DNA of 64,000 nt from an uncultured Gammaproteobacteria bacterium. Lineage in GTDB: Bacteria > Pseudomonadota > Gammaproteobacteria > JAADHQ01. A program made the position numbers and the translations under genes. This document shows positions 1 to 34,108 of the stretch, in pieces. Below the pieces are notes generated by a model. The model saw only the letters and a program-made list of their open reading frames with translations, ran no database searches and had not been told where the DNA came from. The stretch spans positions 91,114 to 155,113 of the forward strand of contig CAWECS010000014.1 in the NCBI GenBank assembly GCA_963807455.1, given 5' to 3'. How positions within the stretch are numbered: position 1 is the first letter of the stretch; every line of letters starts with the position of its first letter.

Positions 1-1272
1 GAGAAGACTTCTGCCTTGGCAGAGAAAGAGGCGCACATCAGATCAATCGTTGAGACTGCAGCTGATGGTATTATAAGCATTGATGAGCATGGATTGATCG
101 AGTTATTTAACCCGGCAGCCGAGCATATTTTTGGTTATAAGGCCACGGAGGTTATCGGCTCAAATGTAAAAATACTCATGCCGGAGCCATTTTATAGTCA
201 CCATGACAGCTATCTTGAGAATTATCGTCATACAGGCAAGGGGAGCATTATTGGTAGCGCGGGGCGTGAGGTAGAGGGAGCTCGTAAGGATAAAACAATT
301 TTTCCTATGGAGTTGACAGTATCCGAGCTTTACCTTGAAGGCCGTCGAAAATTCACCGGCATGGTGAGAGACATTACCGAGCGCAAACAAGCCCGGCAAG
401 AATTGAACAAGCGTTATGAGGATCTAAAGAGCGCTAATAAAAATCTGAAAGCAGCTCAAAGCCAGTTACTGCAGTCAGAGAAGATGGCCTCTATTGGTCA
501 ATTGGCGGCAGGTGTAGCACATGAAATCAACAACCCAGTGGGTTATATCAACTCTAATATTACTACTTTAGAACAATATCTGCATGATTTATTTAAGGTC
601 ATCGATGCCTATGAACAGCTGGCGATCAATACGCAGGATAATGACGATTTGGCCCATGTTAAAGCTGTCAAGGAAGAGGTGGAGCTTGAATATTTGAAAG
701 CAGACATCCTGGATCTCATAGGTGAGTCCCAGGAGGGTGTGTTACGCGTTAAACAAATTGTCCAGGATCTTAAGGATTTTTCTCATGTTGATGAGTCGGA
801 GTGGCAATGGGCAGATTTGCAAAAAGGTCTGGATAGCACGCTGAATGTCGCTCAGAACGAGATCAAATATAAGGCAGAGGTAGTGAAAGAATATGGTGAT
901 ATCCCGCAAATTGAATGCATGGCCTCGCAGATCAATCAGGTTTTTATGAATTTATTAGTCAACGCTGCACATGCTATAGAGGAGCGCGGCACGATTACCG
1001 TAAGAACTTATCAAGAGAATGAAGGTGTTGTTGTGGCTATTAGTGATACAGGAAAGGGTATGCCGGAAGAAGTAAAGGCACGGATATTTGAGCCCTTTTA
1101 TACAACCAAAGAGATTGGTAAAGGCACCGGGCTGGGCTTGTCTTTATCGTATGGGATCATTGAGAAGCATGGTGGTCGTATCGATGTTGATAGTGTTGTG
1201 GGCAAGGGCACCACATTTACGCTATGGTTGCCTGTACAACAAGTCACAAAAGACCAGGTACCCGCGGTATAA
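1..1272 (+). CDS. PAS-domain sensor histidine kinase (5' truncated by window edge)
   Basis: FixL-like PAS (IVETAADGII...LMPEP), H-box LAAGVAHEINNP, N-box QVFMNLLVNA, G-boxes DTGKGM and GTGLGL; the frame is open back to base 1. Confidence 0.9.
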   Translation, partial: EKTSALAEKEAHIRSIVETAADGIISIDEHGLIELFNPAAEHIFGYKATEVIGSNVKILMPEPFYSHHDSYLENYRHTGKGSIIGSAGREVEGARKDKTIFPMELTVSELYLEGRRKFTGMVRDITERKQARQELNKRYEDLKSANKNLKAAQSQLLQSEKMASIGQLAAGVAHEINNPVGYINSNITTLEQYLHDLFKVIDAYEQLAINTQDNDDLAHVKAVKEEVELEYLKADILDLIGESQEGVLRVKQIVQDLKDFSHVDESEWQWADLQKGLDSTLNVAQNEIKYKAEVVKEYGDIPQIECMASQINQVFMNLLVNAAHAIEERGTITVRTYQENEGVVVAISDTGKGMPEEVKARIFEPFYTTKEIGKGTGLGLSLSYGIIEKHGGRIDVDSVVGKGTTFTLWLPVQQVTKDQVPAV

Positions 1273-1440
1273 TGCCTGCTATTATAAAAATATAGTTCCA
1301 TTTAAAACGTAATGATTTTTATAAAGTATTTGCACATATAAGTCGGAATAGAAACTTATTGGATCCTCTTCCGCACTCGTCACCAAGGGTCACTTTTACC
1401 GCACTCTCTCATCAGCAATTAACATAAGGTTTTCCAGGGC

Positions 1441-1467
1441 TTAAGTAATTTGCTCTAGAACCGATAA
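1441..1467 (+). promoter_or_regulatory. Putative sigma28 (FliA) promoter
   Basis: TTAA-N15-ACCGATAA versus consensus TAAA-N15-GCCGATAA, about 30 bp before the receptor start. Confidence 0.55.
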
Positions 1468-1496
1468 TATTGGCTAGGATACTTGATGGAATTAAT

Positions 1497-2687
1497 GTGA
1501 TGAACAGCTATTTGGGGCGCTATTGGCTTGCCATTTTGTTAAGTTTGATGGCGGTCTTGTCCTCGTTTATGTCGGCGCATTGGTGGGTGCAAACCCCTGC
1601 GATGGTCTTTGCTATGGCTGCATGGATATTTTTGACGCGTAACACGGTGGTCACTGAATCTGTTGATAAAGGGCATATGGATGAAGTGGCACTATTAAAA
1701 CAAGCGCTCATATCATCGGCTGATGATATTAAATCCCAGATCGAAGCCATTCATGCGGATGTAAATCGAGTTAAGACAATGTTGAATGATGCTATTGCTA
1801 CTTTGCTAGCCAGCTTCTCAAATATTCATAAACAATCCAGTCTTCAAGGCAGCGATATACATAGATTGAACGAAAGAATCAATGCTATGTGTATAGCTGA
1901 TGGTGAGAAGCAGATAAGTTACGTGGAATTTGCTGATGAAACTGCTAAGACACTCAATTTCATGCATGAGCAGATTGCTAGCTTAAGCCATGAAAATGAC
2001 GCTATGGCGCAAATGATTCACGATACAGCAGAGGATATGGATCGGGTAGGTGATTTGCTGGTTGACGTGAAATCAATCGCTGATCAGACGAATTTACTGT
2101 CACTGAGTGCCGTAGAAGAAGTTGCTCGCGCTGGCGAGGCTGGTCGAGGGTTTGCAGTGCTTGTTGATGAAGTCAGAGAGTTATCGACGCGCTACACTGA
2201 TGTCAGCAACAAGATAAACGATACTGTCAACAATGCGCGTGGCCATATCAATGACAGCAAAGATAAAATTCTAAATATCTCCTCCAGGGATATGAGTCTG
2301 GTTATTCAATCAAAACAAGATGTCGATACAATGCTGGCGCAAATATCAAGCTTGAATGAGCTGTTTGCTTCTGACGTCGATGCCATTAACACCAGCTCTT
2401 GTGATATTGAGCAGAATTTGAGAGCGGTGATTTGTTCATTGCAATTCGAAGATATAACTTCCCAGTTGCTTGATCATATCAAACTCGAGGCCACGCATCT
2501 CAATGAAAGCTTTTTGGATCTCAGATATTTGATCGATAACTTTGATAATGAAGATAAATCCAGCAAGGTAAAACTTGATATTGTTTCACAGATAAAGACA
2601 TCGATTGACGATCGCTCGTCGAGTGCGTTAGAGACAAAGACAGTCACTCAGAAGTCAATGACTCCCGGGGATATTGAATTATTTTAA
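1497..2687 (+). CDS. Methyl-accepting chemotaxis protein, McpA-like
   Basis: Two adjacent N-terminal hydrophobic helices, divergent hairpin tip [43 protein letters not shown] motif, C-terminal DIELF; start GTG 1497 or ATG 1500. Confidence 0.85.
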
Positions 2688-2851
2688 AGTTAATATGATG
2701 CTAAAAGGCATCAAAATATAAGGCGTATTATTAATCTATCCAATACGAATAGATTGAAAAATTCTGGAATCTTTTACAGTTTAAATTCGGCTCTGTTGCG
2801 TTTTTTAATAATATTTTATAGTTTTTTTAACTAATATTAAACGCAGGCGAT

Positions 2852-3751
2852 TCAGGATACCTTGTTTTTTAATCCCATGCCAAGATCATGGCAAATGATA
2901 ACAATTTCTTCAAAATCATCTTCACTAATGCCAAGGTAATGAAAAATAATATCGCGGCACTCGTTCCATTCAATATCAGTATCCTGTTCGCCAATTATTT
3001 TGTACAGGCCGACAATGTGCTCTGCCATCTTTAAGACAGCGAGGAGGTTCATCACATCGCTACCCTGGCTTCCAGTCTGGCCGAATATTTCTATAATGTT
3101 ATGATGTTGCTGGATAGCTTCACAAATTGAAGGTGATAGCTTCCATGATTTGGCTATATAAAAGCCGATGACCGCATGATTGGTATTGATTATATTGTTT
3201 TCAGCATCAATAAGTCTTTTTTCGCCGCAGTTGTAAGACGCATGCATCGTCTCTCTGTAGTCGCTGAATTTTGACATTAATAAAGGAATGCCAGCATTGT
3301 GGAACAGGCCAAGTGTGTAGGCCTCATCCGGAGAAATAAATCCAATTTGTTTGGCAATGGTAGCGGCGGTCAAAGCAACATCCTGGGCGGTATCCCAGAA
3401 GTGATTCATGTCTTTAATTTCGTCTTCAGATAAATTTTCATTGTTACTCAGTTCAGTATGAACGGCGATCGCATTGACGATATTAACGACGCTATTGATG
3501 CCCAGTAAAACCACGGCCTTCTGGATCGAAGTAATTTTATTACGCAAGCCAAAGAAAGGCGAGTTGACTGCTTTGAGTACCTTGCCTGAAATAGCGACAT
3601 CACGGCTGATCAAGCGGGCAATTTCATTGATATCAGGATCGGGCATGACTTGTTCCATCTGCAAGTCGACCATGATTTGTGGCTGAACCGGTATACTCAT
3701 ACCGCGCATGATGTTGTCTATTTGATCATCAGTCAGGGTTGTGTCTGTCAT
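2852..3751 (-). CDS. HDOD domain protein
   Basis: IPVQPQI..., LISRDVAISGKVLKAVNSPFFG, AYTLGLFHNAGIPLL, HAVIGFYIAKSWKL..AIQQHH. Confidence 0.9.
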   Translation of the reverse strand: MTDTTLTDDQIDNIMRGMSIPVQPQIMVDLQMEQVMPDPDINEIARLISRDVAISGKVLKAVNSPFFGLRNKITSIQKAVVLLGINSVVNIVNAIAVHTELSNNENLSEDEIKDMNHFWDTAQDVALTAATIAKQIGFISPDEAYTLGLFHNAGIPLLMSKFSDYRETMHASYNCGEKRLIDAENNIINTNHAVIGFYIAKSWKLSPSICEAIQQHHNIIEIFGQTGSQGSDVMNLLAVLKMAEHIVGLYKIIGEQDTDIEWNECRDIIFHYLGISEDDFEEIVIICHDLGMGLKNKVS

Positions 3752-9065: not shown

Positions 9066-9383
9066 ATGGATGAAAATCCAATAAAAATCAGTGATTCAGC
9101 AAATGGGAAATGTATTATTTGCCCGGATTATTTTGATATTTCACTGGCAGCGCAATTGCACCAGATGCTGTGCGAAGTCATGCAAGAAAAACCCGTTAGG
9201 ATCGAACTGGATGGTCAGAATATCGAGATAATTGATACCTCGATTCTGCAAACGCTATGCGCATTTTTCCGTGATGCCAGCAGCGCTGGAATTAGTGTGA
9301 GCTGGATAAATGTCAATGATGTGCTCTGCCGAGCGGCGCTGGTTCTGGGTTTGACGGCACCATTACATTTGCAATCTGAATAA
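9066..9383 (+). CDS. STAS domain protein
   Basis: IELDGQNIEIIDTSILQTL STAS-like motif; first gene of the che cluster. Confidence 0.8.
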   Translation: MDENPIKISDSANGKCIICPDYFDISLAAQLHQMLCEVMQEKPVRIELDGQNIEIIDTSILQTLCAFFRDASSAGISVSWINVNDVLCRAALVLGLTAPLHLQSE

Positions 9384-9431: not shown

Positions 9432-9794
9432 ATGGCGACGATCTTGACAGTAGATGATTCAACCTCAATGCGACAAATGGTCATGTATACACTGACACAG
9501 GCTGGTTATGATGTTGCTGAAGCAGCAGATGGTGTTGAAGGCTTTGAGAAGGCGCAGTCAAATCGATTTAATCTGATCATCACTGATGTCAATATGCCAA
9601 GGATGGATGGTATTACCCTGGTCAAGGAACTCAGAGGATTGACCAACTACAAGTTTACTCCGATCTTGTTGTTGACGACGGAAGCAGGTGCTGACAAAAA
9701 GAAACAGGGAAAAGAAGCCGGTGCTACCGGTTGGTTGGTCAAGCCTTTTAATCCTGATCAATTACTGAATACGATCAAAAAAGTAATAGGTTAG
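9432..9794 (+). CDS. cheY: Chemotaxis response regulator CheY
   Basis: Single receiver domain VDDS, TDVNMP, LLTTE, GWLVKPF; directly before cheA. Confidence 0.93.
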   Translation: MATILTVDDSTSMRQMVMYTLTQAGYDVAEAADGVEGFEKAQSNRFNLIITDVNMPRMDGITLVKELRGLTNYKFTPILLLTTEAGADKKKQGKEAGATGWLVKPFNPDQLLNTIKKVIG

Positions 9795-9798
9795 CTGA

Positions 9799-11887
9799 GT
9801 GACCATTGATCTTACCCAGTTTCATGCAACATTCCTCGAGGAAAGTCTGGAAGGTCTGGATGTTATGGAGTCCAGCCTGCTTGATCTGAATCTGAATGAT
9901 GAGGATCCTGAAACCATCAATACCATTTTCAGGGCGGCACATTCCATCAAGGGTGGTAGCGGAACCTTTGGCTTTATGGAAATTGCCGAGTTTACCCATG
10001 TGCAGGAGACTTTACTCGATCAGATCAGAAGCTCAACCAGGGAAGCAACCCAGGACATCATCAATACCTTGCTGGAATCAGTCGATTGCGTTCGTGAGAT
10101 GTTATTTGCCGAGAAAGATAAAAGAAAATACGATGCTGATCATGTCAACTCGGTGCGCGCAAAATTAGATAGTATCCTCAATGCTAATGAAAACCCGGTG
10201 GCAACTGTAGCGCTCGAAGAAGAGATAAATACTGCTTCCGTGCAAGGATGGAACATAAAGTTCGCGCCACATCCGGGTATGATCAAGACAGGTAATGACC
10301 CCGTCAGAATTCTGCGTGAATTATCATCCCTGGGTCTTATGGAAGTACAGGTGAATATAAATAAGCTGCCTGAGCTTGCGCAAATTGAAGCAGAATGCTG
10401 CTACCTCTCGTGGGATATCGAGCTGTTTGGCGACATTGAGGAAGCTTACATAAGAGAAATATTTGACTGGGTGGTGGATGATTGTGATTTGTCTATCATT
10501 CCAATGTCTCAGGCCGACGGCCTGCAACAGCAAAACGGAAATTCAATAGAACGCCATTCAAATAGTCAGGCGCTGAAAGAAACGCTGACAGCCACTGAAA
10601 TTTCTACAGATACTGGTTCAGATGAGCTCGTTGCTGAGGCATTACCAGAAGTTACTTCGGCCAGGAAGCGTTCTAAAACGCATGGTAGACAGCAGCTCGA
10701 TCAGAGTGAGTACAGAAAAGGTAGATGAGTTGATCAATCTGGTCGGTGAGCTGGTGATAACACAATCGATGATTGGCGAGCTAGGGCAGAACTTTAATGC
10801 CAGCAATATTGAACGCATGATGGATGGGCTGTCTCAACTGGAACGGCACACTCGGGAATTACAGGAAAGTGTCATGCGTATTCGCATGTTGCCGATCAGT
10901 TTCTCATTCAATCGTTTTCCACGTATGGTACATGACCTTGGCAATAAGCTGGGCAAGAAAATCGAGCTTAAAATGTCTGGTGAGAATACCGAACTGGATA
11001 AAACAGTACTGGAAAAGATTGGCGATCCGTTGGTGCACCTGGTCCGGAATTCAATGGATCATGGGCTTGAGACGCCTGAGCAACGTAAGGCATGCGGCAA
11101 GCCTGAAACCGGTGAATTGCATCTTAATGCTTATCATAAAGGTGGCAGTATTATTATCGAAATCAGCGATGATGGCGCTGGTCTTAATAGAGAAAAAATC
11201 AGGAACCATGCCATTCAGAGAGGACTGATAACAGCAGAGGAAGCCCTTAGTGATGATAAAATATATGATCTGATTTTTCAGCCCGGATTTTCTACAGCTG
11301 AAGCGGTGAGTGACGTCTCTGGTCGAGGTGTCGGTATGGATGTAGTGCGAAGAAATATCAGGGAGTTGGGCGGTGCGGTGGACATAGCGTCTACTCCCGG
11401 GCAGGGTTCGAAGGTGACTATTCGACTGCCACTGACGCTTGCTATTATGGATGGACAGCTTGTCAGAGTAGGCAATCAGACCTATATCATTCCGTTGGTT
11501 TCTATTATTGAATCACTGCAGGCCCGCGAAGAAAATATCAAAACTATTGTTGACCATGCCGAGGTTTACAGGCTTCGAGATGAATATATTAATATTGTAC
11601 GTTTATATGAAATTTTTAATCTTCAACCTGATACGCATAATATCAATGATGGTTTGCTTGTTATCGTTGAAGGAGAAGGCAGGAAAATTGGTCTCTATAT
11701 CGATGAGCTATTTGGCCAACAACAGGTAGTGATCAAAAGTCTGGAAACCAATTATAAACGTATAGATGGAGTTTCAGGTGCAACCATACTGGGTGATGGT
11801 ACGGTAGCCATGATCATTGACGTACCTGGATTGGTTACCATGTCTCGTAGCAAAATCATCAGCATAGAAGATAATAAGGTCGCTTAA
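9799..11887 (+). CDS. cheA: Chemotaxis histidine kinase CheA (one apparent frameshift near 10681)
   Basis: P1 IFRAAHSIKGGS in ORF 9799-10728; SIRVSTEKVDELINLVGELVI, HATPase and CheW domains in ORF 10622-11887; removing one base joins them. Confidence 0.93.
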
Positions 11888-11899
11888 GGGGGTTGAACA

Positions 11900-12406
11900 A
11901 TGGATCAGGCAATAGAATTTCAGAATGAATACACCATGAGCGCAGATGTCGATAATCAGTATCTTACTTTTATCCTGGCAAACGAGGAATATGCCATCGA
12001 TATATTACGTGTGCAGGAGATCAGGTGTTGGCAAGCAGTGACTACATTGCCGAATGCACCGGAATATATAAAAGGCGTTATCAATATAAGAGGTACGATC
12101 GTTCCCATTATTGATTTGCGTAGACGTTTCAACATGGAGCCCATGGAATATGGCCCTACGACCGTTGTTATTGTTGTTAAGGTATCAGCCGAAAATCGTG
12201 ATCGTGTCATGGGCATCGTGGTAGATGGTGTTTCAGATACTTATGAAATACCAGAGGAGAATGTGAAACCGTCTCCTGATTTTGGTGACAAAATCGATAT
12301 GGATTTTGTTAATGGATTAGCAACCATCGATGAAAATATGTTGATACTTCTCGATATAGACAAGCTTTTAAACTCAGGGGAATTGCACGACCTGGATAAT
12401 CAGTAA
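11900..12406 (+). CDS. cheW: Chemotaxis coupling protein CheW
   Basis: QYLTFILANEEYAIDILRVQEI, GVINIRGTIVPIIDLR, GIVVDGVSD. Confidence 0.96.
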   Translation: MDQAIEFQNEYTMSADVDNQYLTFILANEEYAIDILRVQEIRCWQAVTTLPNAPEYIKGVINIRGTIVPIIDLRRRFNMEPMEYGPTTVVIVVKVSAENRDRVMGIVVDGVSDTYEIPEENVKPSPDFGDKIDMDFVNGLATIDENMLILLDIDKLLNSGELHDLDNQ

Positions 12407-12486
12407 AGCATTGTCCTGTAACAGGAAATCATGACTGAATATTATTGATGCTTGGACTTAAACCGCATAAACACAAAGGCAATGTA

Positions 12487-12645
12487 ATGAGTAAGCCGGA
12501 AAAAAAATACTACACCAGAGTATTACAGGTATCAAAGCCCGCTGTTGTTATGAAAACAAAGCGTAATATATATACTGTGGTCAGACAAAAGACATGGTGG
12601 ATTATTACTGAAAATGTATTGGCTGGAATTGCGTGGAATGGATAA
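12487..12645 (+). CDS. Possible small hypothetical protein (52 aa)
   Basis: Co-oriented ORF filling the cheW-receptor gap; no recognisable motif. Confidence 0.25.
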   Translation: MSKPEKKYYTRVLQVSKPAVVMKTKRNIYTVVRQKTWWIITENVLAGIAWNG

Positions 12646-12668
12646 TGAAAATTCAGGGGAAGGTATAA

Positions 12669-15543
12669 ATGGCTAGCAAAAGTAAAATGGGTATTAATCC
12701 ACAGACCTGGGCGGAAGACAATATGCCGGGGAAAGCAGCGATAAAATTAAAAAAGCGTAAACAGAAACAAAAGTCTGCTGGCGTGAAAAAAGTTAATCTG
12801 AATGTTGATATTCTTGAGTCCAGCTTCAAGATGTTGGCGCCACATGGTGAAATACTGGTCGCCAGGTTTTATCAGGAATTATTTAAGCGCTTTCCTGGCG
12901 TAGTCCCATTATTCAAAAATACAACTGCGGCGCAACAACAAAAGAAATTACTGGCTGCATTACAGCTGGTGGTGAATAACCTGAGAAGGCCAAAGGTCCT
13001 GAAAAAAGCCTTATCAGGTTTGGGTGAACGGCATCAGGCTTATGGCGCCGTGATGGCTCATTATGACGCGGTTGCGGAGACATTGCTTGATGTGATGTCG
13101 GAGATTGCAGGTGATGCATGGACAGAAGAAGTGGCAACTGCCTGGCAAGAAGCATTAAATGAAGTGGCAAGAATTATGTTGAAAGCTTATAAATCGGGGG
13201 ACGAAAAGATGGGCGCAAACTCTAGAATGGCTAGTCAGGCAGGTGATTATGATGATTCAGAAATCCTGAAAAGTGTCGTTGACAATGCCATGACTGCGAT
13301 CATGATGATAGACCGCGATCTGGTAATTACCTATGCAAACAAGTCAACGATTGCATTATTAAGCAAGCATGAAGTGGAGCTCAAGGGTCTATACCCGAGT
13401 TTTTCTGTATCAAAACTTATCGGCACCTGTATAGACATTTTTCATAGCAATCCTGCGCACCAGCGACAGATGCTGAGTAATCCTGACAATCTGCCATTTT
13501 CGACGGATATACAGGTCGGTTCATTGATATTCAGAATCAATGTGATTGCCATGTATGACAACTCTGGCATCTATATCGGCAATTCACTGGAATGGTCCGA
13601 TGTGACCGGTCTACGTGCAAAAGAAAATGAAGCGCGTCGTTTGCAAGGTACCGTGGATGGTGCAATGACGGCCATCATGATGATTGACCGTGATTTTAAT
13701 ATTACCTATGCCAATGAATCGACGCAGAAATTACTGATTGAGAATGAGTCTGTCTTGCGTGAGACTTTCCCGGGGTTTTCTGCCAGAGAAAATTGTTGGC
13801 GTCAATATTGATACATTTCACAAGAACCCGGCCCATCAGCGTCAATTGTTAGCGGATCCGAACAACCTTCCTTACCAGACAGATATACAAGTGGGCCCAC
13901 TGAAATTTGAACTAAATGTAACGGCAATTATTGATATAGAAGGTAACTATATTGGTAATGCCCTTGAATGGTCTAACGTAACAGAGGCAAGGAAAAAAGC
14001 CGTAGAAGTCGCTCGACTACAATCAGCGGTGGATGGAGCCACGGCTAATCTGATGCTATGTGATGCTGATTTAAATATCACCTATGCCAACCCCTCAGTG
14101 GTTGACATGTTGGCCAACCGCCAATCCGAGTTACGTCAAATATGGCCTGGTATGGATGCGCATAACCTTGTCGGTCAAAATATTGATCAATTTCACAAGA
14201 GACCAGAACACCAGAGAGCCTTGCTCAGTGATGCAAGCAGAATGCCGATCAGGGCTGAAATGAAAATGGCTGAACTTTCTTTTGAACTCAATGCCACCAT
14301 CATTACAGGTCCGGATGGCGAGTACATGGGCAATATGGTTGAGTGGAAAGATCTGACTGAGCAAAAAGATGCGGAAGCGCAAATTCAGACCTTGATACAG
14401 GACGCAGTCGATGGCCGCCTGGATAGCCGTATTCAAACAAATAACTACAAGGGTTTCATGAAAGGGCTGGGTGATGGTGTCAATTCGTTAATGGATGCAA
14501 TGAGTAAGGCCGGCAAAAGAGATAAAAAAGGTAATGGAAGGTCTGGCTATCGGTAATCTAACCGACAGTATGAGTGAAGATTACGAGGGTGAATTCAATG
14601 CGATGAGTCGTGCAGTGAATGATTCAATCACGAACCTTAAACAAATGGTTAGTGAGATTTTGTCAGGTCACGGATAATATTGCTTCTTCTGCTGGTGAGA
14701 TTGCCCAGGGCAACGCTGACCTGAGTCAACGTACTGAAGAGCAGGCATCCTCATTGGAAGAAACAGCATCAAGCATGGAGGAGTTAACAGGTACAGTTAA
14801 ACAAAATGCCGATAATGCACGACAGGCAAATCAGTTGGCGGCACGAGCACGAACTGAGGCTGAGATGGGTGGTGAGGTTGCCAGTAAAGTTATTGTGGCG
14901 ATGGCTGAGATTAATGCCAGCAGTAAGGAGATTGCGGACATTATTGGCGTCATTGACGAAATTGCGTTTCAGACCAACTTGTTGGCTCTAAATGCAGCAG
15001 TGGAGGCAGCACGTGCAGGTGAGCAGGGCAGGGGTTTTGCAGTTGTTGCTGCCGAGGTCCGTAATCTGGCACAACGAAGTGCATCTGCAGCAAAAGAAAT
15101 AAAATCATTAATTAAAGACAGCGTCGTCAAGGTGGATGAGGGAACCAAACTGGTCGATGAATCAGGCAAGTCACTGGAAGAAATCGTCACCTCAGTGAAA
15201 AAGGTCAATGACATTATCGCGGAAATTGCTGCAGCCAGTCAGGAACAATCTTCTGGTATTGAACAAATCAACAAAGCCGTTGTGCAGATGGATGAAATGA
15301 CACAACAGAATGCTGCGCTGGTAGAGGAAGCCGCCGCTGCCAGTGAATCACTGGATGAGCAAGCCTCCGGTATGATTGAATTAATGGGATTTTTCAAAAC
15401 TGGTGAAGAGCAAAGACAAAATAGAAGCATCAGAAAACCTGAGTTTACCAGCAAAGAATTGCCACAGACAAAAAGCAAGCGCCGGCGTGCCGGCATCGCG
15501 TAAAAAATCCATGGATACCGATGATGAATGGGAGGAGTTCTAG
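12669..15543 (+). CDS. Soluble Aer2-like chemoreceptor: globin + 3 PAS + HAMP + MCP signalling domain (four apparent frameshifts)
   Basis: Globin RFYQELF...LGERHQAYG; three PAS repeats with IDxFHxxPxHQ and EW; HAMP region 14510-14668; tip [30 protein letters not shown]; final frame ends [13 protein letters not shown] at 15543. Confidence 0.88.
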
Positions 15544-15614
15544 TCAACATTAAAGTATCAGCACTTGTACCTGGACGAGTATGATCTGTAAAGCAACATG
15601 ACAATCACTGTTTA

Positions 15615-16472
15615 TTGTCCTATGGAGATGCAGTTTTGGAAAATGAACAAGAGTTCAGATTTACTGACAGGGATTTTAATTATATAAAAAAATTGATTGC
15701 TGAAGAAGCCGGTATATCATTGTCGGATGCTAAACGTACCATGGTATATAGTCGTTTAGCGCGGCGTTTGCGATCTTTGTCGCTAAAGAAGTTTTCGTCT
15801 TATTGTGATTTATTAAAAAACCGTGATGAGCATGAGCTTGTCAATTTTATCAATGCTATTACTACCAATCTGACCTCGTTTTTCCGTGAAAAACACCATT
15901 TCGAATTTATGGTCAGCACGCTAATTCCACGCTGGATTAAATCCAGAAGTGATACACGTCGACTTCGCATATGGTCTGCCGGTTGTTCGACGGGTGAAGA
16001 GCCCTATTCCATTGCTATAACCCTGTTGGAGCATTTTCCTGAACTGGAAAAATGGGATATAAAAATTCTCGCTACAGACCTTGATACGAATGTAGTCTCG
16101 ATAGCGAAAAATGGAGTTTATAATGTTGAGCGTACCGAAGGTTTGCCGAAATCAATGTTGAAGCGCTGGTTCCTTAAGCGTTCAAGTGGGGATTCAGGAG
16201 AGGTCAAGGTATCTCCCGAGTTGCAAGATCTGATCATTTTCAAGCAACTCAATCTACATCAGGACTGGCCATTTGATGGCCCTTTTGACCTGATATTTTG
16301 CAGAAATGTCGTCATCTATTTCAATAAGGACACGCAGCGGGTGCTTGTGGATCGTTACGCCGATAAGCTCAGCGATGAGGGCTTTCTTTTTCTGGGACAT
16401 TCCGAAAACCTGTATAGAGTCTCTGACAGGTTTAATCTGGTCGGTAATACTGTGTACAGCAAGATCAGGTAA
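15615..16472 (+). CDS. cheR: Chemoreceptor methyltransferase CheR
   Basis: TTNLTSFFRE, RIWSAGCSTGEEPYS, ATDLD, FCRNVVIYF, GHSE. Confidence 0.96.
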   Translation: MSYGDAVLENEQEFRFTDRDFNYIKKLIAEEAGISLSDAKRTMVYSRLARRLRSLSLKKFSSYCDLLKNRDEHELVNFINAITTNLTSFFREKHHFEFMVSTLIPRWIKSRSDTRRLRIWSAGCSTGEEPYSIAITLLEHFPELEKWDIKILATDLDTNVVSIAKNGVYNVERTEGLPKSMLKRWFLKRSSGDSGEVKVSPELQDLIIFKQLNLHQDWPFDGPFDLIFCRNVVIYFNKDTQRVLVDRYADKLSDEGFLFLGHSENLYRVSDRFNLVGNTVYSKIR

Positions 16473-17122
16473 TGATGATGAGTTCTGATCATAAACAATA
16501 TATTAATATACCTAAACCTTCATTGCGAGGATTCACATCTATCAATCGTTTTTGGGATAAATCCCGAGAGGCAATTTCTGCCAAGATTCTACCAGGGCAG
16601 TATTATGTTACCACGGATGACGAGTATATTGTCACGGTGCTCGGTTCCTGTGTGTCAGCCTGTATCAGGGACAGGGTTGCTGGTATTGGAGGTATGAATC
16701 ATTTTATGCTACCCAGGAGCTATCAGGATAGCGATGATACGCCGATTGATTTGAGTGATGCTGCGCGTTATGGAAATTACGCGATGGAGCATCTGATTAA
16801 TGATATCCTCAAGCATGGTGGCCGACGTGATTATCTTGAGGTCAAGATTGTTGGTGGTGGCAGGATTATCGCCAATATGACTAATATTGGCAGTAAAAAT
16901 ATTTCCTTTGTCAGGGATTACTTGCAAACAGAAGGTATGCAGGTCCTTGCAGAAGATGTCGGTGACATTTATCCAAGGAAGGTTGTCTATCACCCGTTGA
17001 GTGGTAAAGTAAAGGTCAAAAAAATGCGTTCTCTGCATAATGATACCATCAGAGTGCGTGAAGAACGTTACATGCATGAGATTGCGAGTGAGTCTGTTGC
17101 TGGTGATGTTGAGTTATTTTGA
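16472..17122 (+). CDS. cheD: Chemoreceptor glutamine deamidase CheD
   Basis: KILPGQYYV, TVLGSCVSAC, GGMNHFMLP, ARYGNYAME; C-terminal GDVELF. Confidence 0.95.
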   Translation: MMMSSDHKQYINIPKPSLRGFTSINRFWDKSREAISAKILPGQYYVTTDDEYIVTVLGSCVSACIRDRVAGIGGMNHFMLPRSYQDSDDTPIDLSDAARYGNYAMEHLINDILKHGGRRDYLEVKIVGGGRIIANMTNIGSKNISFVRDYLQTEGMQVLAEDVGDIYPRKVVYHPLSGKVKVKKMRSLHNDTIRVREERYMHEIASESVAGDVELF

Positions 17123-17133
17123 TACTGGATGAT

Positions 17134-18210
17134 ATGCAAAAAATACGTGTACTAATTGTTGATGACTCTGCCCTGGTAAGAAAACTCCTGACAGAGATCC
17201 TGTCAACTGACCCTCAAATCGAGGTCGTCGGTAGCGCGCAGGATCCCTATATTGCCAGAAACAAAATCAAGGAGCTGAATCCTGATGTACTGACGCTGGA
17301 TATAGAAATGCCAAGAATGGATGGCATAACTTTTTTGACAAAACTGATGAAGCTCAGGCCGATCCCCGTGGTCATGGTTTCAACGATGACTGAGCAAGGA
17401 GCAGAGGTAAGCTTAAAAGCGCTTGAATTGGGTGCTGTTGATATCGTTTCCAAACCTAAGGAAGATATTGCAGGAACACTGCATGAGTATACAGAAGAAC
17501 TGGTAAGCAAGGTTAAAAATGCTGCCACGGCGAACCTTAAATTAATAGAAACCAATATCAATAATATAAAAATCGAAAAGAAGCTTTCCGTTGATGCTAT
17601 CCTCGCCAAGGAAAAAAAGTTTATTCATAACAGAGCAACCGAGAAGATTATTGCTGTAGGCGCATCCACCGGTGGGACGGAAGCTATAAAAGATCTTCTA
17701 ATGCAGTTACCTGCTGATACTCCAGGCATTGTCATCACGCAACATATTCCAGAAGCATTTAGTTTGTCTTTTGCTAATCGTATGAACTCGGTATGCAAAA
17801 TGGTTGTTTGTGAAGCGAGTGATGGGCAGCAAGTTCTTGCTGGCCATGTATATATCGCGCCCGGAAACCGTCATTTGCTGGTAGAGCGTACTGGAAAAAA
17901 GTATGTTTGCAAGCTGAATGATGGTCCGGCTGTTAACCGCCATAGGCCCTCTGTCGATGTTTTATTTCGTTCTTTGGCGCTATGTGCCGGTCGTAATGCA
18001 GTCGGTATTATTCTGACCGGTATGGGAAATGATGGCGCACAAGGTCTGTATGAAATGCATGAGACAGGCTCACCTACCATAGCGCAGGATGAAAAAACCA
18101 GCGTTGTCTGGGGTATGCCCGGTGAGGCGGTGAAGATGGGCGGCGTTGATTCTGTGCTGGCATTGAACATTATTCCCGGCAAGCTCCTTAGTCTTACTTC
18201 GGGGCAGTAG
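17134..18210 (+). CDS. cheB: Chemotaxis methylesterase CheB
   Basis: Receiver domain plus GASTGG, QHIP, HRPSVDVLF, LTGMGNDGA, VVWGMP. Confidence 0.96.
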   Translation: MQKIRVLIVDDSALVRKLLTEILSTDPQIEVVGSAQDPYIARNKIKELNPDVLTLDIEMPRMDGITFLTKLMKLRPIPVVMVSTMTEQGAEVSLKALELGAVDIVSKPKEDIAGTLHEYTEELVSKVKNAATANLKLIETNINNIKIEKKLSVDAILAKEKKFIHNRATEKIIAVGASTGGTEAIKDLLMQLPADTPGIVITQHIPEAFSLSFANRMNSVCKMVVCEASDGQQVLAGHVYIAPGNRHLLVERTGKKYVCKLNDGPAVNRHRPSVDVLFRSLALCAGRNAVGIILTGMGNDGAQGLYEMHETGSPTIAQDEKTSVVWGMPGEAVKMGGVDSVLALNIIPGKLLSLTSGQ

Positions 18211-28408: not shown

Positions 28409-30394
28409 TTACTCATCGGCGGGAGGCTGATTGCTTGTAGTATCTGTATTTTGTTTAAATGGAGGGGGTATAGAGGGTAACTGTTCTGGCAGTAACGGTA
28501 TCTCGGAATCATCCATTAGATAAACGCCTTTTTCTATCTGTTCCAGTTGTTTGTTTCGTATCATTGTAGTATTTACCCTCAGTGACACGCATGTTCGTGG
28601 CTGCATCACGCAGTATTACCGGACGCAGAAAAACCATTAGATTACTTTTAGTCTTTAAGGTTGTGTCAGAGCTGAACAGGCGTCCAAGCAACGGAATATC
28701 GCCAAGAAGGGGAACAGATTGATGGGATTGCGTTATCTTGTCGTCTATCAGTCCGCCCAGCACGATAGTATGTCCATCTTCGACCATGACGGTGGTTTTG
28801 ATTGAGCGCTTGCTGGTGGTCAGGTCACTGGCGCCGGCGCTACTGGGTATAACGTCACTGATCTCCTGCTCGATATCCAGCTTGATGGCATCGCCTTCAT
28901 TGATTTGCGGAGTGACCCTGAGGGTTAGACCAATGTCCTGACGTTCTATGGTGCGGAAGGGGTTGACCGCGCCTGCAGTGCCGCCGGTACTGCTGAATTC
29001 ACCGGTGACAAAGGGGACATTCTTACCGACGACGATCTCCGCTTCCTGGTTATCCAATGTTACCAGGCTCGGGGTTGACAGGATATTAGATTTGGAATCG
29101 CCGGACAGGGCGTTGATGATAGCAGCAAAGTTGATAGTCGAACTGTCAAATCGGCCAAAACCGATCGTAGCCCCGGTACCCAGGGAAGGCGGATTGCCCG
29201 CTACGATGTCGGTGGCTATACCGCCTATGCTACCGAAGTTAATTACACCGACGGCACCTTTGCCGCTGGGGCTGCCATCAATGGCCCATTGCACACCCAG
29301 TTCCCTGTGATTTATCCAGTGTTACCTCGGCAATGATGGCTTCCACCAGTACCTGGGCACGACGGATGTCCAATCGGCTAATGACGCGTTGCAAGGATCG
29401 GAAAATGTCCGGCGGCGCGGTAATCACCAGCGCATTGGCGCTTTCATCAGCCTGTATGCTGACATTGGCACCCAGGCTCGGTGTACCCGGTTTGGCTTTC
29501 TGATCTTTCAGGGATTTGCTGACGCCGGTCAGCACGGTCACCAGATCTTTGGCCTTGGCATAATGCAGATAAATAACACGTGTGCCGCCATCAGACTCCA
29601 AAGGTGTGTCAAGATGACTGATCAGCACTCGATACCTCAAGCGCTCACTGGCTTCACCACTGAGTAAAACGCTGTTGGTGCGTTCGTCTGCAGCGAAAGT
29701 AACCTGGGTGGCGACGTTGGCTTTCTTTTTTGACGACAGGCCATTCAAGTACCCTGACAATTTCGCTGGCCGACGCATGGCTCAGCCTGACGATTTCAAT
29801 TTTGCTGTCACTGACCTGGTCGATCTTGGCAACAATCTTGGCCATCCTGGCGACATTATCGGCGCGGTCAGTAATGATCAAAACATTCTTCGATGGGTAG
29901 GCAGCCAGATGCCCTTGTTGAGGGATCAGCGGCCTGAGGATCGGAACCAGTTGAGCGGCGGTAACATTCTTGACGCGCAGGATGCGGGTTACCACCTGGT
30001 CTCCTCGAATGGATTCTAAGCCTCGGATGGTGGGCACACTACCCTGTTTGGCTTTGCTGTCGGGAACAATCTTGGTGATATCACCCACCGGCACTGTCGC
30101 AAAGCCATGCACTTCCAATATCGACAGGAAGATAGGGTAGATCTCGTCTTTGGAAAGCGGGCTGGCCGAGACCACGGTGACTTTGCCTTTAACCCGTGGA
30201 TCGATAACAAAATTCTTGCCAGTCAATTTTGACACTGTGCTGATCAGGGTGGAAATATCAGCATTTTTGAGATTGAGCGTGACTTCATTCTCGGCACTGA
30301 CGACGACAGGCAGGCCCAGGCTCAGCAACAGGATTAATCCCTTGATACACTTCCGTGACCAGCGCTGAAATGATATATATTCCATATAAAACAT
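28409..30394 (-). CDS. gspD: Type II secretion secretin D (three apparent frameshifts near 29748, 29304, 28569)
   Basis: N0 LNLKNADI...GKNFVIDPRVKGKV, RRAQVLVEAII, secretin NILSTPSLVTLDNQEA and VPLLGDIPLLGRLF in four overlapping ORFs. Confidence 0.92.
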
Positions 30395-30652: not shown

Positions 30653-31402
30653 TCAATAAACGCCTTCATACTGTATGGTCATGGAGCCATCCGAATGGAG
30701 TTTACCGGCGTTTTTGAGCATGGAAATAATAAAATTATCGGCTTTAACGGTTGGGCTGAACAAAGCTTTGAAACTGAATTTATGTCCGGGATTCAGTCGT
30801 AACAGGCCATCTATGCCAATGGGTGCCTGTTGATCCTTGATCTCCACTGTAATCTCGCCTGGGCGGGTGTCGAGATTCATTTTTATATTCCCTAGTTCGG
30901 TTTGCACCGGTTGCTGTAGAAATCCCTGTGCAAGCAGTATTTTGCCCTGAGCTTCCTGTAGTTCCTTGTCTATGTACGATAGAGACTTCATATCAATTGA
31001 CAAGTTCCCTGATAGTTGAATAAAAGCTAGCATCGGTATCTGGTTAAGCAACGCAGCAGGCAGCTTGCCGGTTAATTCCTGTGCTTCAATATCGCCATTA
31101 AAGGCAAGATTAATGTCACCCTTGAGTGGATATTCAACATCCTTGATATCAACATTCAAGGCCATTTCACCCAGCAGTAAAGTCAACGGGTTTAATGTCC
31201 AATGCACATTTTGAAAAGTCTGCCCCAACATCTTGATACTGCCGGCCTGACCAGACCACGCAGAGCCGCTCAGTTGGCGCATTTGCACTCCCTGTTTTTC
31301 AAGTCCTGCTAGTTGGTAGACAATGCTGGCGGGTAGTTTGACCATCATAAAAAGCAGAAAACATAACAGGCCAATAGAGAGCAAAAGAATACGGTTTTTC
31401 AT
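30653..31402 (-). CDS. gspN: Type II secretion protein N
   Basis: N-terminal TM, LPAS, GSAWSG motif; follows gspM. Confidence 0.85.
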   Translation of the reverse strand: MKNRILLLSIGLLCFLLFMMVKLPASIVYQLAGLEKQGVQMRQLSGSAWSGQAGSIKMLGQTFQNVHWTLNPLTLLLGEMALNVDIKDVEYPLKGDINLAFNGDIEAQELTGKLPAALLNQIPMLAFIQLSGNLSIDMKSLSYIDKELQEAQGKILLAQGFLQQPVQTELGNIKMNLDTRPGEITVEIKDQQAPIGIDGLLRLNPGHKFSFKALFSPTVKADNFIISMLKNAGKLHSDGSMTIQYEGVY

Positions 31403-31888
31403 TTTATGCCTTTTATCAGCTCAAGCCTGGCATTGACGGTTCCGGGCGTATCCTGGCGATCGATATTGATACTGTTGATATGGATTTGATGCTCGTTGGC
31501 AAGCTTTCCCAGCCACGAAATCAGTGAGTCAAAACCGGTATTTTCAAACCAGATTTGTACCTTGTTATTACCCTGGGGTTCCAGTCTTTTCATGGTTCGT
31601 CCCAGCCCTGAGCGCTTGATGGTTGAGTCCACTATCGACAACAAGGGGCCAGTATTGGAGCCGGCCTTGCCTGCTGACAATCCTTGTAAGCTGGCAATCT
31701 CATTACCTGCGTTTTGTACCCATGTCAGTTGTTTGCGTTGCGCCATCGACCCGGGTATGTTTTTGTGCATAACCCTCGGTGATAGGTGACCAGATCAGCA
31801 GGTAGATCAAGGACAGAGAAATAACCGCAGCCAGGACCAGAATAATCAGCCTTTCATTAGGTTCTTTGGAGTAATACCAGGCTTTCAT
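31399..31888 (-). CDS. gspM: Type II secretion protein M (apparent frameshift near 31743)
   Basis: W...PNERLII + TM in one ORF; FDSLISWL...GTVNARLEL in the overlapping ORF. Confidence 0.85.
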
Positions 31889-33112
31889 TAGCTGCTCTCC
31901 TGAATGCGTAGTCGTGCAGATACCGCCTTGCCCTGTACAGCAGCCGAGCGAATATCCACTGTCAGGCCGGACTGGCTGACCGCTTGCTTGAGTTTTTCCA
32001 GCGCCTGCAGATCATTAATAGCCAGCTCGATATCCACCTGGCCATTGCGAAAGTTCACCCCCGTCAGATCTGATAGAACGCTCAGCCTGCATGGCTTTTG
32101 AAAACTTGGACATGATTTGTAAAAATTTCGCCCCACCGCCCTGGCTGCCGGATTTCAAGGTACTGAGACGTTGTTGCATCTGGTTTCTCGGATCGCGCAT
32201 ATTTTTAACATCTGGCAAGGCTTTTTTAAAAATCTGGGTAATTTGTTGTTGTAATTGTTCGGATTCATTGCTCAGGGATATATAGCTAACAATACCGCTG
32301 ACCGCCTGAATAACAACAACAATCGCCAACATGGCCGCAGCCGGGTACCATTTTTTATAGGATTGACTGGCGACTTTCCTGGCAGTATAGGCGCCTTGCA
32401 GCAGATTAATGCCGCCACCATCCTGATAGTTTTTCACCAACAACTCGAGCAGACTGGCAGGGGGAGATGAACGCGTGATATCCATGCTGCTATCATCCAT
32501 ATTTTCCAGCATTGGCTGGCGATCGTCTGCGCGCGCATCGATAATGTTCAATGCTTCCGGGGCCTGTTCGCCAGCTTCTTCAATCGCCATTTCAACATAA
32601 GCTTCAAGGCTGTCGGTATCAACACTGAAAGCGCTGAACTCTCCGGTTTGCACGCTGGATTCCTGTTCTTCTATGACAATGTTCCACTGGCCTTGCTGAC
32701 ATGGCAGCACAATAGATTCTGCCATAATGACCTGCGGGTGGAGCCGATACTCTGCCAGATTGGCGATAATATTATCGAGCCTGGTGCGGGCAATGGCGCA
32801 GACCGGAATGGCTTCTGCGGGCAGGCGCGCGGGGATGGCAAAGTGAAACTGGCTGACATCGCCGATCAGATCATCTTCCATAGAATAGGGGATGGCCTGC
32901 AGGATTTTCTGCCGGTTGCGAATGGGAATATTTTGCATCGCCAGGTGCACATCACTGGCGGGAATAAACACCACCAGCTTTTTGCCGCGACAGGCATTGG
33001 CAATCTCATCCAGAGACGAGTCTGTCTGTGATAGCACGATGGACTGACCATCAGCCAGATACATGTCCAGCGAATCATCCTTGTGAATCCTGATAAATAC
33101 GGTACTAGCCAT
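31888..33112 (-). CDS. gspL: Type II secretion protein L (apparent frameshift near 32069)
   Basis: AIPYSMEDDL, INLLQGAY, TM, QIFKKALP; periplasmic C-terminus in ORF 31888-32136. Confidence 0.88.
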
Positions 33113-34108
33113 CAATCAACCCCGGGACTACGTGATATGGTTTCAATACTACCATTGCTATTCCTTTTCAGGATACTGTGCAAATTACTGCTGATATTAT
33201 CTATCTGAACTTGTGCCTTCACCATGAAGTACTGTGAACTTACACCAATCAGGGGTTCTATTTCCACTGGATATTTGCTTTTATCGGCAGCATAGCTTTC
33301 TGTTTGAGTGATAAATTCTTTATTGGTATTGAATACTGAGCCACGGTCTTCAACAATTTCGGTGGCTTTTTTCAGGTCCAGTTGTGGCGACAGGGCAGCG
33401 ATGACTTCAGCTGGGGCGGTATTGATATTCACCGTGGTGGCTTCCGGCAGGGCGGTAACAAAGGGCTTGCAGTTTCGCGTAAATCTCAGCGGTGACCCCT
33501 TCGACTAATAATAGCTCAGAAGGACTGCTCATGAGCCGATTACCAGCGCGGTAAGGCGGGGTTTTCTGCTGGTAGGTCTGGTCTTCGGCACCATCCGGGA
33601 AGCTGATATCCGCATCCTCATCAATCCAGTCAATAATCGCTTGAGCCAGGGGCACATTGATCTCGAGTACCTGCAATAGGCGGTTAAACATCTCAATCTG
33701 TTGCTTCTGGCGCGTAACCTGCTGCGGGTCTTTTGGGTTTTGCATGTGCAGATTATTAATATTGAACAGACCGCTTAGATCAGTAATTTGTCCACTGATG
33801 GTGCCACCCTCGATAATGGTCAGCGGCAGTGGTTGTGCCCAGTCTTCAAACAGATTGTCAGTGTTTTTATTGCTGCTGCTTTGTCCGTCTTTATATAGAA
33901 TGCCGCGGGCCCAGGATTCACCCGCCAATGCATAATAATAAGCTTGCTGGCTATAGAGAATGTTACCCAGACGGCGGATGTCGTATTGTTGCCGCTCGGT
34001 AATATTAACAGCAATGATGGTCGCCAGCGCTACCACCAGCAAGGCGGTTAACATGGCGATGCCGCGTTGTTTGCCTGCATGCATGTGATTGTTCAGCATA
34101 GGCATCAT
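33112..34108 (-). CDS. gspK: Type II secretion minor pseudopilin K (apparent frameshift near 33466)
   Basis: QRGIAMLTALLVV, FNINNL, IIDWIDED, ELLLVEG, NINTAPAEVI, SQYF. Confidence 0.9.

Follow-up and report, generated by a model that had tools for sequence, protein, structure and literature searches.

A soluble Aer2-family chemoreceptor with an N-terminal flavohaemoglobin-type globin in an uncultured gammaproteobacterium and its relatives

A 64,000-nucleotide stretch of DNA from an uncultured Gammaproteobacteria bacterium (assembly GCA_963807455.1, contig CAWECS010000014.1), referred to here as the window, carries on its forward strand, at positions 12669-15543, a chemoreceptor gene in which a globin is fused to three Aer2-type haem-PAS domains. 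A first-pass annotation had described it as one protein after four single-base repairs, and this observation of a fused receptor has been confirmed as real. In the open reading frame (ORF) listing the gene appears as five co-linear, overlapping ORFs (12669-13811, 13738-14556, 14534-14677, 14619-15503 and 15403-15543) in frames 0, 1, 2, 0 and 1, which gives four shifts, each equivalent to one extra base or two missing ones. Once placed as +1 shifts, the pieces are collinear with the closest intact homolog (P0018), a protein of 954 residues that is 83% identical to the window receptor and aligns to its pieces from end to end at 78-88% identity (tblastn). Read in this manner, the receptor starts with a basic peptide, which is followed in turn by a globin, a disordered linker, a PAS1-PAS2-PAS3 array, a di-HAMP region, a hairpin of the 36-heptad (36H) class and a tail bearing EWEEF, as listed in Table 1. 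The first ORF, with 380 residues, holds the globin, PAS1 and the N-terminal half of PAS2 without interruption, as had been stated. Pfam matches on the window receptor are to Globin (PF00042, E 5.5e-15, residues 66-168), PAS_8/PAS, HAMP_2 and MCPsignal. The receptor had also been claimed to have no transmembrane helix, and none is indicated, the highest Kyte-Doolittle mean over 19 residues being 1.26 for both the window pieces and P0018.

Table 1. Features of the receptor gene, its frame breaks, the surrounding che genes and other split genes of the window
Feature	Position	Strand	Basis or remark
Whole receptor gene	12669..15543	+	about 956 codons with four one-base shifts allowed; collinear with intact homolog P0018
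N-terminal extension, Lys/Arg-rich, residues 1-44	12669..12800	+	disordered in model (predicted local distance difference test, pLDDT, <50 at residues 1-40); degenerate motif GINPQTW
3-on-3 globin, flavohaemoglobin/single-domain (F/M) family	12801..13196	+	Pfam, PDB matches, model
Low-complexity globin-PAS1 linker	13197..13253	+	predicted disordered
PAS1, Aer2-type haem PAS	13254..13616	+	His codon 13443-13445, Trp codon 13593-13595
Helical connector and PAS2 (spans frame break 1)	13617..13995	+	His codon 13819-13821, Trp codon 13969-13971
PAS3, PAS of the conserved Aer2 core	14017..14373	+	His codon 14194-14196, Trp codon 14344-14346
Di-HAMP region (spans frame breaks 2 and 3)	14374..14669	+	HAMP_2 PF18947 E 1e-5, weak McpB_HAMP_1st match, 3vol alignment
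Kinase-control hairpin, 36-heptad class	14670..15400	+	EE pairs where Tsr has methylation sites; MCPsignal E 1.3e-56
Unconserved C-terminal tail, EWEEF (15526-15540) and stop codon	15401..15543	+	ORF listing, sequence
Frame break 1	13788..13792	+	one extra base, within or next to four consecutive A
Frame break 2	14500..14504	+	one extra base, no homopolymer
Frame break 3	14666..14669	+	one extra base
Frame break 4	15486	+	extra base; left out in a metagenome contig of about 99% identity
STAS, small gene before cheY	9066-9383	+	Pfam
CheY	9432-9794	+	Pfam
CheA, two pieces, one +1 shift	9799-10728 and 10622-11887	+	Pfam, frames
CheW	11900-12406	+	Pfam
CheR	15615-16472	+	Pfam
CheD	16472-17122	+	Pfam
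CheB	17119-18210	+	Pfam
Split GspD secretin, three pieces	28509-30394	-	one-extra-base shifts
Split GspK, two pieces	33112-34108	-	one-extra-base shift
Split GspM, two pieces	about 31399-31990	-	one-extra-base shift

Aer2 receptors serve as a model for PAS-haem gas sensing, and the Pfam and PDB matches of the window receptor, the NCBIfam match of P0018 and the order of the che genes around the receptor argue for an Aer2-type identity. PAS1 matches the Vibrio cholerae Aer2 PAS structure 6ceq (E 4e-27), as well as 3vol and 4hi4 from Pseudomonas aeruginosa Aer2, and its model superimposes on 6ceq with a template modelling (TM) score of 0.90 (Foldseek). PAS3 and the first HAMP domain match 3vol at E 6.5e-32, in an alignment that crosses the PAS-HAMP junction. 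Each of the three PAS domains contains the FHxxPxHQ and EW motifs, as had been noted: the former, with the E-eta histidine, aligns to 3vol, 4hi4 and 6ceq, and the I-beta tryptophan of the latter aligns to the P. aeruginosa Aer2 tryptophan in 3vol and 4hi4. The first histidine of FHxxPxHQ is presumably the haem ligand. The hairpin aligns to residues 278-529 of Escherichia coli Tsr, a member of the 36H class, without gaps over 250 residues (E 4e-85; 3zx6, 6s1k, 1qu7), and insertions are required to align it with the Thermotoga receptor 2ch7. These matches to Aer2 and Tsr structures are far beyond chance, and with a last PAS, a di-HAMP region and a kinase-control core all recognisable, the receptor can be taken as an Aer2-family member on sequence grounds. 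The tail, read as EWEEF in agreement with the annotation, satisfies the CheR-tethering pentapeptide motif x-[HFYW]-x2-[HFYW], as defined in the literature (PMC7184735).

The NCBIfam profile NF041847, named for the aerotaxis transducer Aer2, is covered over positions 28-804 of its 804 by residues 186-954 of P0018. From about residue 186 onward the window receptor is thus a close relative of the tri-PAS Aer2 of Vibrio vulnificus (VvAer2), with three PAS domains bearing the haem histidine and the tryptophan, a di-HAMP region, a 36H hairpin, an EWEEF tail and a soluble character common to both. The difference resides in an added N-terminal part of about 185 residues, comprising the basic peptide, the globin and the tether. 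With P. aeruginosa Aer2/McpB the receptor shares the PAS-haem and HAMP core and the pentapeptide tether; the P. aeruginosa protein differs in having one PAS after three HAMP domains and no globin, according to the available part of the source (PMC7184735). The annotation had remarked that characterised Aer2 proteins lack a globin, and this agrees with the portion of a recent study that could be consulted, where the four receptors from P. aeruginosa, V. cholerae, V. vulnificus and "Li" are presented with none (PMC10107281). The same text treats the varied N-terminal parts of Aer2 receptors as an open question in the field.

The globin had been assigned to the flavohaemoglobin/single-domain type rather than to HemAT, and the matches bear this out. 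Its Pfam score against PF00042 is 56.3 bits, with a gathering cut-off of 22, and the best matches among solved structures are Hell's Gate globin I (3s1i, E 2e-17), the haemoglobin of Vitreoscilla (1vhb, E 5.5e-15), flavohaemoglobins (1cqx) and a thermoglobin. The globin model superimposes on 3s1i with a TM score of 0.91 and a root-mean-square deviation of 1.1 (Foldseek), which indicates a 3-on-3 fold. The globin motifs quoted in the annotation are present, with codons for Tyr B10 at 12870, Gln E7 at 12936 and the proximal His F8 at 13032; in an alignment with Vitreoscilla haemoglobin and flavohaemoglobin these positions match, as do Phe CD1 and Tyr G5. The domain corresponds to positions 7-136 of the 399 in the flavohaemoglobin model NF009805, after which PAS domains follow, and the receptor lacks the FAD/NAD(P)H reductase module of Hmp. 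Unlike a flavohaemoglobin, then, this globin has no reductase and is fused to a chemoreceptor, and a further apparent difference, at the H23 position, is considered below.

Two other globin classes were considered and rejected. A HemAT-type sensor globin was set aside because Protoglobin (PF11563) has no match in the window protein at E<=0.01 and no structure of HemAT, of protoglobin or of another sensor (S-family) globin occurs among the best 60 of 78 PDB matches at E<=1; a truncated 2/2 globin was set aside because the best Pfam match is PF00042 and the model is 3-on-3. [quoted passage not shown] Sequence, folds, residue conservation and gene context are observed here; haem binding, the ligand and the role of the globin are deduced. 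With one globin and three Aer2-type PAS domains, four haem sites are predicted per chain, in line with the earlier estimate of up to four haems, and the globin-Aer2 family would place two haem folds on one receptor.

Used by itself as a query, the globin domain matched 5794 cluster representatives when E<=1e-3 was allowed, and 105 of them at E<=1e-30. The PDB matches include a cyanobacterial nitric oxide (NO) synthase whose N-terminal part is a globin of the same type (9q05, E 1.5e-7); the title of the corresponding paper refers to moving nitrogen from arginine to nitrate (PMC6104048). This offers a precedent in which a tethered globin has a chemical function instead of a signalling one. A second, stand-alone globin has been detected in the same genome as the window (G000:C24:52970-53386), with 32% identity to the receptor globin and a 158-residue open frame that has one TGA inside the match.

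The manner in which the globin is attached was assessed on AlphaFold2 models of window residues 1-324 (51-row alignment, mean pLDDT 78, predicted TM score 0.46) and of full-length P0018 (mean pLDDT 73, predicted TM score 0.31). The window model shows a confident globin at residues 46-172 (pLDDT about 90) and a confident PAS1 at residues 196-323, with pLDDT below 50 at residues 177-194, as in the N-terminal extension. In the P0018 model, residues 171-199 are without secondary structure and pLDDT falls below 50 at 175-205; the PAS1-PAS2, PAS2-PAS3 and PAS3-HAMP connectors are modelled as 18-residue helices, the first two with low scores. The globin is thus predicted to be joined to PAS1 by some 20-30 disordered residues. 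This linker is 47% identical to that of P0018, as compared to 84% for the globin, 93% for PAS1, 95-99% for PAS2, 87% for PAS3 and 91% for the hairpin, and its length in 50 homologs ranges from 12 to 146 residues, with a median of 20. A complex prediction of globin residues 44-176 with PAS1 residues 195-324 (score 0.01, mark 0.32), run without controls, carries no weight either way.

Such a connector bears on the suggestion that the globin acts as a genuine sensor, the fourth of the receptor, which would pass its ligand state allosterically to PAS1-3 and would afford a wider oxygen range or the detection of a second gas such as NO, carbon monoxide (CO) or sulfide. The upstream haem domains of V. 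cholerae and V. vulnificus Aer2 modulate the last PAS, according to the available text of the same study (PMC10107281), the haem-pocket residues of the globin are under strong constraint, and in the receptors the globin always stands N-terminal to the PAS array, all of which would suit an allosteric sensor. The disordered and poorly conserved connector of variable length does not suit it, nor does a globin copy number ranging from one to seven, and both Vibrio receptors are described in that text as unresponsive to CO or NO (PMC10107281). On the CheA and CheW proteins described below, moreover, the same globin cannot act through PAS1. Allosteric sensing by the globin is therefore regarded as rather unlikely, and the integration of NO, CO or sulfide by the receptor as speculation.

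The extent of the family was examined by a search for longer homologs, in which 765 of 6635 candidate proteins reached E<=1e-5, the best 120 being examined. Among these, 115 carry one to seven globins of this type together with three to six PAS domains, and five have no globin. A single globin is combined with three PAS domains in 51 homologs, with four in 31, with five in 18 and with six in three, while two globins occur in seven homologs, three in one, four in one and seven in three. In the homologs that have the fusion, globin and PAS domains are encoded together as a single protein, in line with the annotation. An xWxxF sequence stands at the C-terminal end of 114 of the 120, and the PAS histidine and tryptophan are each kept in 454 of 455 PAS domains. 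Among the named sources are Colwellia, Sulfuriflexus mobilis, Halioglobus and Oleispira, along with many uncultured Gammaproteobacteria of marine or vent origin. The globin-capped Aer2 design is accordingly common rather than rare among the sequences searched. The three homologs with seven globins (P0001-P0003, about 1850 residues) have these in tandem with three PAS domains, and in a separate protein of 2461 residues (P0161) Pfam finds 14 globins in tandem and nothing else.

Conservation of the haem pocket within the family is nearly complete, with His F8 kept in 144 of 145 globin domains, Gln E7 and Phe CD1 in 143 each and Tyr B10 in 142. This would be difficult to reconcile with a globin that has no gas chemistry and serves mainly for structure or positioning, in which case it would, for example, cap the distal end of the array or meet the membrane. 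The location of the globin at the distal tip, beside a peptide that is polybasic and has a link to a ParA-like ATPase, would be compatible with such a role. So would reports that Hell's Gate globin I, the closest solved relative, interacts with lipids (PMC11203436) and that Aer2 arrays are membrane-associated despite the soluble receptor (the available text of PMC10107281). Pocket conservation nonetheless points to haem and ligand binding and not to scaffolding alone, and a purely structural globin is considered very improbable.

The same globin also occurs on other components of the chemotaxis machinery. In a gammaproteobacterial metagenome-assembled genome (locus L017, positions 693-3335, + strand), the CheA of the homologous cluster is encoded by one ORF of 880 residues with a Pfam Globin match (E 1.5e-16) at residues 289-393, between the Hpt and dimerisation domains, and in the receptor of the same cluster Pfam finds six globins, alongside four PAS domains. 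A query with this CheA region gave 43 matches, 13 of which combine Globin with the complete CheA domain set, along with one partial form; the contigs of three of these are equal in length to those bearing the three seven-globin receptors. A protein of 600 residues (P0122) consists of CheW followed by three globins. A globin tree was calculated from 70 hand-chosen domains, namely 13 from CheA, 25 from single-globin receptors (the window receptor included), 14 from four multi-globin receptors, three from CheW, ten free globins and five of the 14 in P0161, with no further domains included. In this tree the 13 CheA globins and one receptor globin form one supported group (98/93), which is nested within an unresolved set of receptor globins. 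The presence of the globin on CheA and CheW of relatives suggests an action on the whole array and not via the receptor signalling chain.

The disordered and variable tether, the presence of one to seven copies per receptor and the recurrence of this globin in CheA and CheW together favour an accessory rather than an in-line globin. Such a tethered accessory on the array might act as a buffer or scavenger of oxygen or NO in the vicinity of the PAS haems, or it might tune their response. A more general proposal, for the moment a tentative one, is that globins of the F type are a modular accessory of F7 arrays with a tunable copy number, tethered to receptor, CheA or CheW and acting as a local gas buffer or NO scavenger. 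If this were the case, the PAS-haem sensors would have their effective oxygen range or their time constant set by the globins, or be shielded by them from NO, and the sensor array would carry its own ligand-conditioning layer.

The four frame breaks in the receptor gene require separate consideration. All nine split-gene junctions found in the window are of the one-extra-base (+1) type, with four in the receptor, one in CheA, two in GspD and one each in GspK and GspM. Since unrelated type II secretion genes share this type of break, and natural decay would mix deletions, insertions and stops, a systematic consensus error is indicated. There are no in-frame stops in any of the five receptor pieces, and the domain identities to P0018 are even. 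Parts of the stretch are present in two public metagenome runs, whose contigs span break 4 only of the four; there, a contig about 99% identical over 15280-15600 omits one letter at 15486, which restores the frame. The receptor gene was detected at E<=1e-20 in six of 41 genomes, its own included, and in the five relatives the frame runs on without a break for 963, 902, 982, 1113 and 945 residues. On these grounds the four breaks are very probably insertion errors of the assembly.

A recent loss of function, with the receptor gene, and cheA too, being pseudogenes and the frameshifts real mutations, would account for the concentration of five breaks within the 5.7 kb of cheA and the receptor, where cheW, cheR, cheD and cheB are intact. 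It would also fit the absence here of the ParA-like gene found in a same-genus relative (L005) and the degenerate motif of the N-terminal peptide. Against it stand the shared one-extra-base type of all nine window breaks, those in the type II secretion genes included, the lack of in-frame stops with domains 84-99% identical to those of P0018, and the contig without the extra base at the only site covered, so that a pseudogene is judged improbable. A junction count based on codon statistics over the whole genome gave 525 same-strand junctions, of which 22 lack a start codon; this count is insensitive, having caught one of the five known cheA and receptor junctions. As the assembly has many one-base insertions, split genes of this genome should not be taken as pseudogenes.

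Taken together, the gene most plausibly encodes a functional Aer2-family receptor of a Che2/F7-like cluster, with frame breaks that are assembly errors and a globin that is a tethered accessory, a reading to which we assign a probability of roughly 0.6. By analogy with VvAer2, oxygen would bind a b-type haem held by the PAS histidine, stabilised by the PAS tryptophan, and the signal of PAS3 would pass via the di-HAMP region to the 36H hairpin controlling the neighbouring CheA/CheW, while PAS1 and PAS2 would modulate. In VvAer2 itself signalling falls to PAS3 and modulation to PAS2, whereas PAS1 can largely be dispensed with; its tail is likewise EWEEF (PMC10107281). The EWEEF tail of the window receptor would tether CheR/CheB, with adaptation through the EE sites, and the globin, with its Tyr-B10/Gln-E7/His-F8 pocket, would bind haem and a diatomic gas.

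Several points weigh against this account. Haem and gas binding in the globin-Aer2 family are predictions, and the position of the flavohaemoglobin proximal Glu H23 appears to be a tyrosine in an extended, uncertain alignment, so that flavohaemoglobin-like chemistry is not assured. P0018 scores 1031.2 bits against NF041847, under the 1200-bit equivalog cut-off, and would count as a relative rather than an equivalog of Vibrio Aer2. The tether is deduced from disorder in monomer models, to which a docked or dimer-dependent arrangement would be invisible. As to the frame breaks, four in 2.9 kb are denser than in most genes of the window, and outside sequence covers one of the four sites, through a single contig with a depth of 4.6 that may itself be wrong.

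Combinations of globin and PAS domains in chemoreceptors have been described in silico. Sharma, Parales and Singer (2018) listed PAS, Bac_globin and MCPsignal together in seven proteins from 8,075 genomes, with examples that include Colwellia, Glaciecola and Halioglobus, according to the accessible part of the article (PMC6194562). Those proteins resemble the present receptor in having PAS, globin and MCPsignal in one soluble chain, and Colwellia and Halioglobus are also among the homologs found here. They differ in that the globin was labelled as the truncated type (PF01152), the design was called rare and, in the same accessible part, no link to Aer2 haem-PAS domains is made; some of the seven probably belong to the globin-Aer2 family. 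In the text available for a 2026 review of aerotaxis, PAS-haem and globin receptors form separate classes and the sole combined case is the Corallococcus prediction of that 2018 paper (PMC13401364). Ortega et al. depict Aer2-like receptors as PAS-HAMP repeats, the word globin being absent from their text (PMC7184735). The globin surveys searched do not mention such chemoreceptor fusions, and a literature search outside subscription journals and supplements turned up neither a paper in which a globin of the F type is joined to an Aer2 receptor, CheA or CheW nor an experimental study of the design. The globin-Aer2 design is a widespread, uncharacterised variant of the Aer2 family.

The receptor lies within a che cluster in the order STAS-cheY-cheA-cheW-receptor-cheR-cheD-cheB, and the same order recurs in 11 of the 12 genome loci whose flanks are long; the exception, L025, has no che genes upstream of the receptor. 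In all five short loci of relatives, CheW adjoins the receptor. Both gene content and gene order resemble an F7-type che cluster, with no McpA-like second receptor in the window. The cheY-cheA-cheW-aer2-cheR-cheD-cheB order, which we take to be that of P. aeruginosa Che2/F7, is the same as in the window. STAS matches have been detected at the same place in loci L015, L017, L018 and L020.

A gene for a ParA-like ATPase has been found between cheW and the receptor in eight loci (L005, L007, L016, L017, L020, L021, L022 and L026), and all eight receptors beside it have a basic N-terminal stretch with a GxDPLxW motif. The intact motif occurs in none of the nine loci without the ParA-like gene, and a degenerate form is seen in L006 and L015, which are probably one genome. 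The co-occurrence amounts to a pattern and not a test, covering 17 loci from kin that are not independent. Basic N-terminal peptides are activators of ParA/MinD ATPases. In Rhodobacter, TlpT has been suggested as the partner of PpfA, which positions the cytoplasmic chemoreceptor cluster (PMC7993993). The window receptor itself has the degenerate motif shown in Table 1, and the 262-base spacer between cheW and the receptor (12407-12668) does not contain the ParA-like gene; the best ParA-like match in the same genome is 36% identical and lies on a different contig. The spacer holds just one ORF, of 66 residues (12445-12645).

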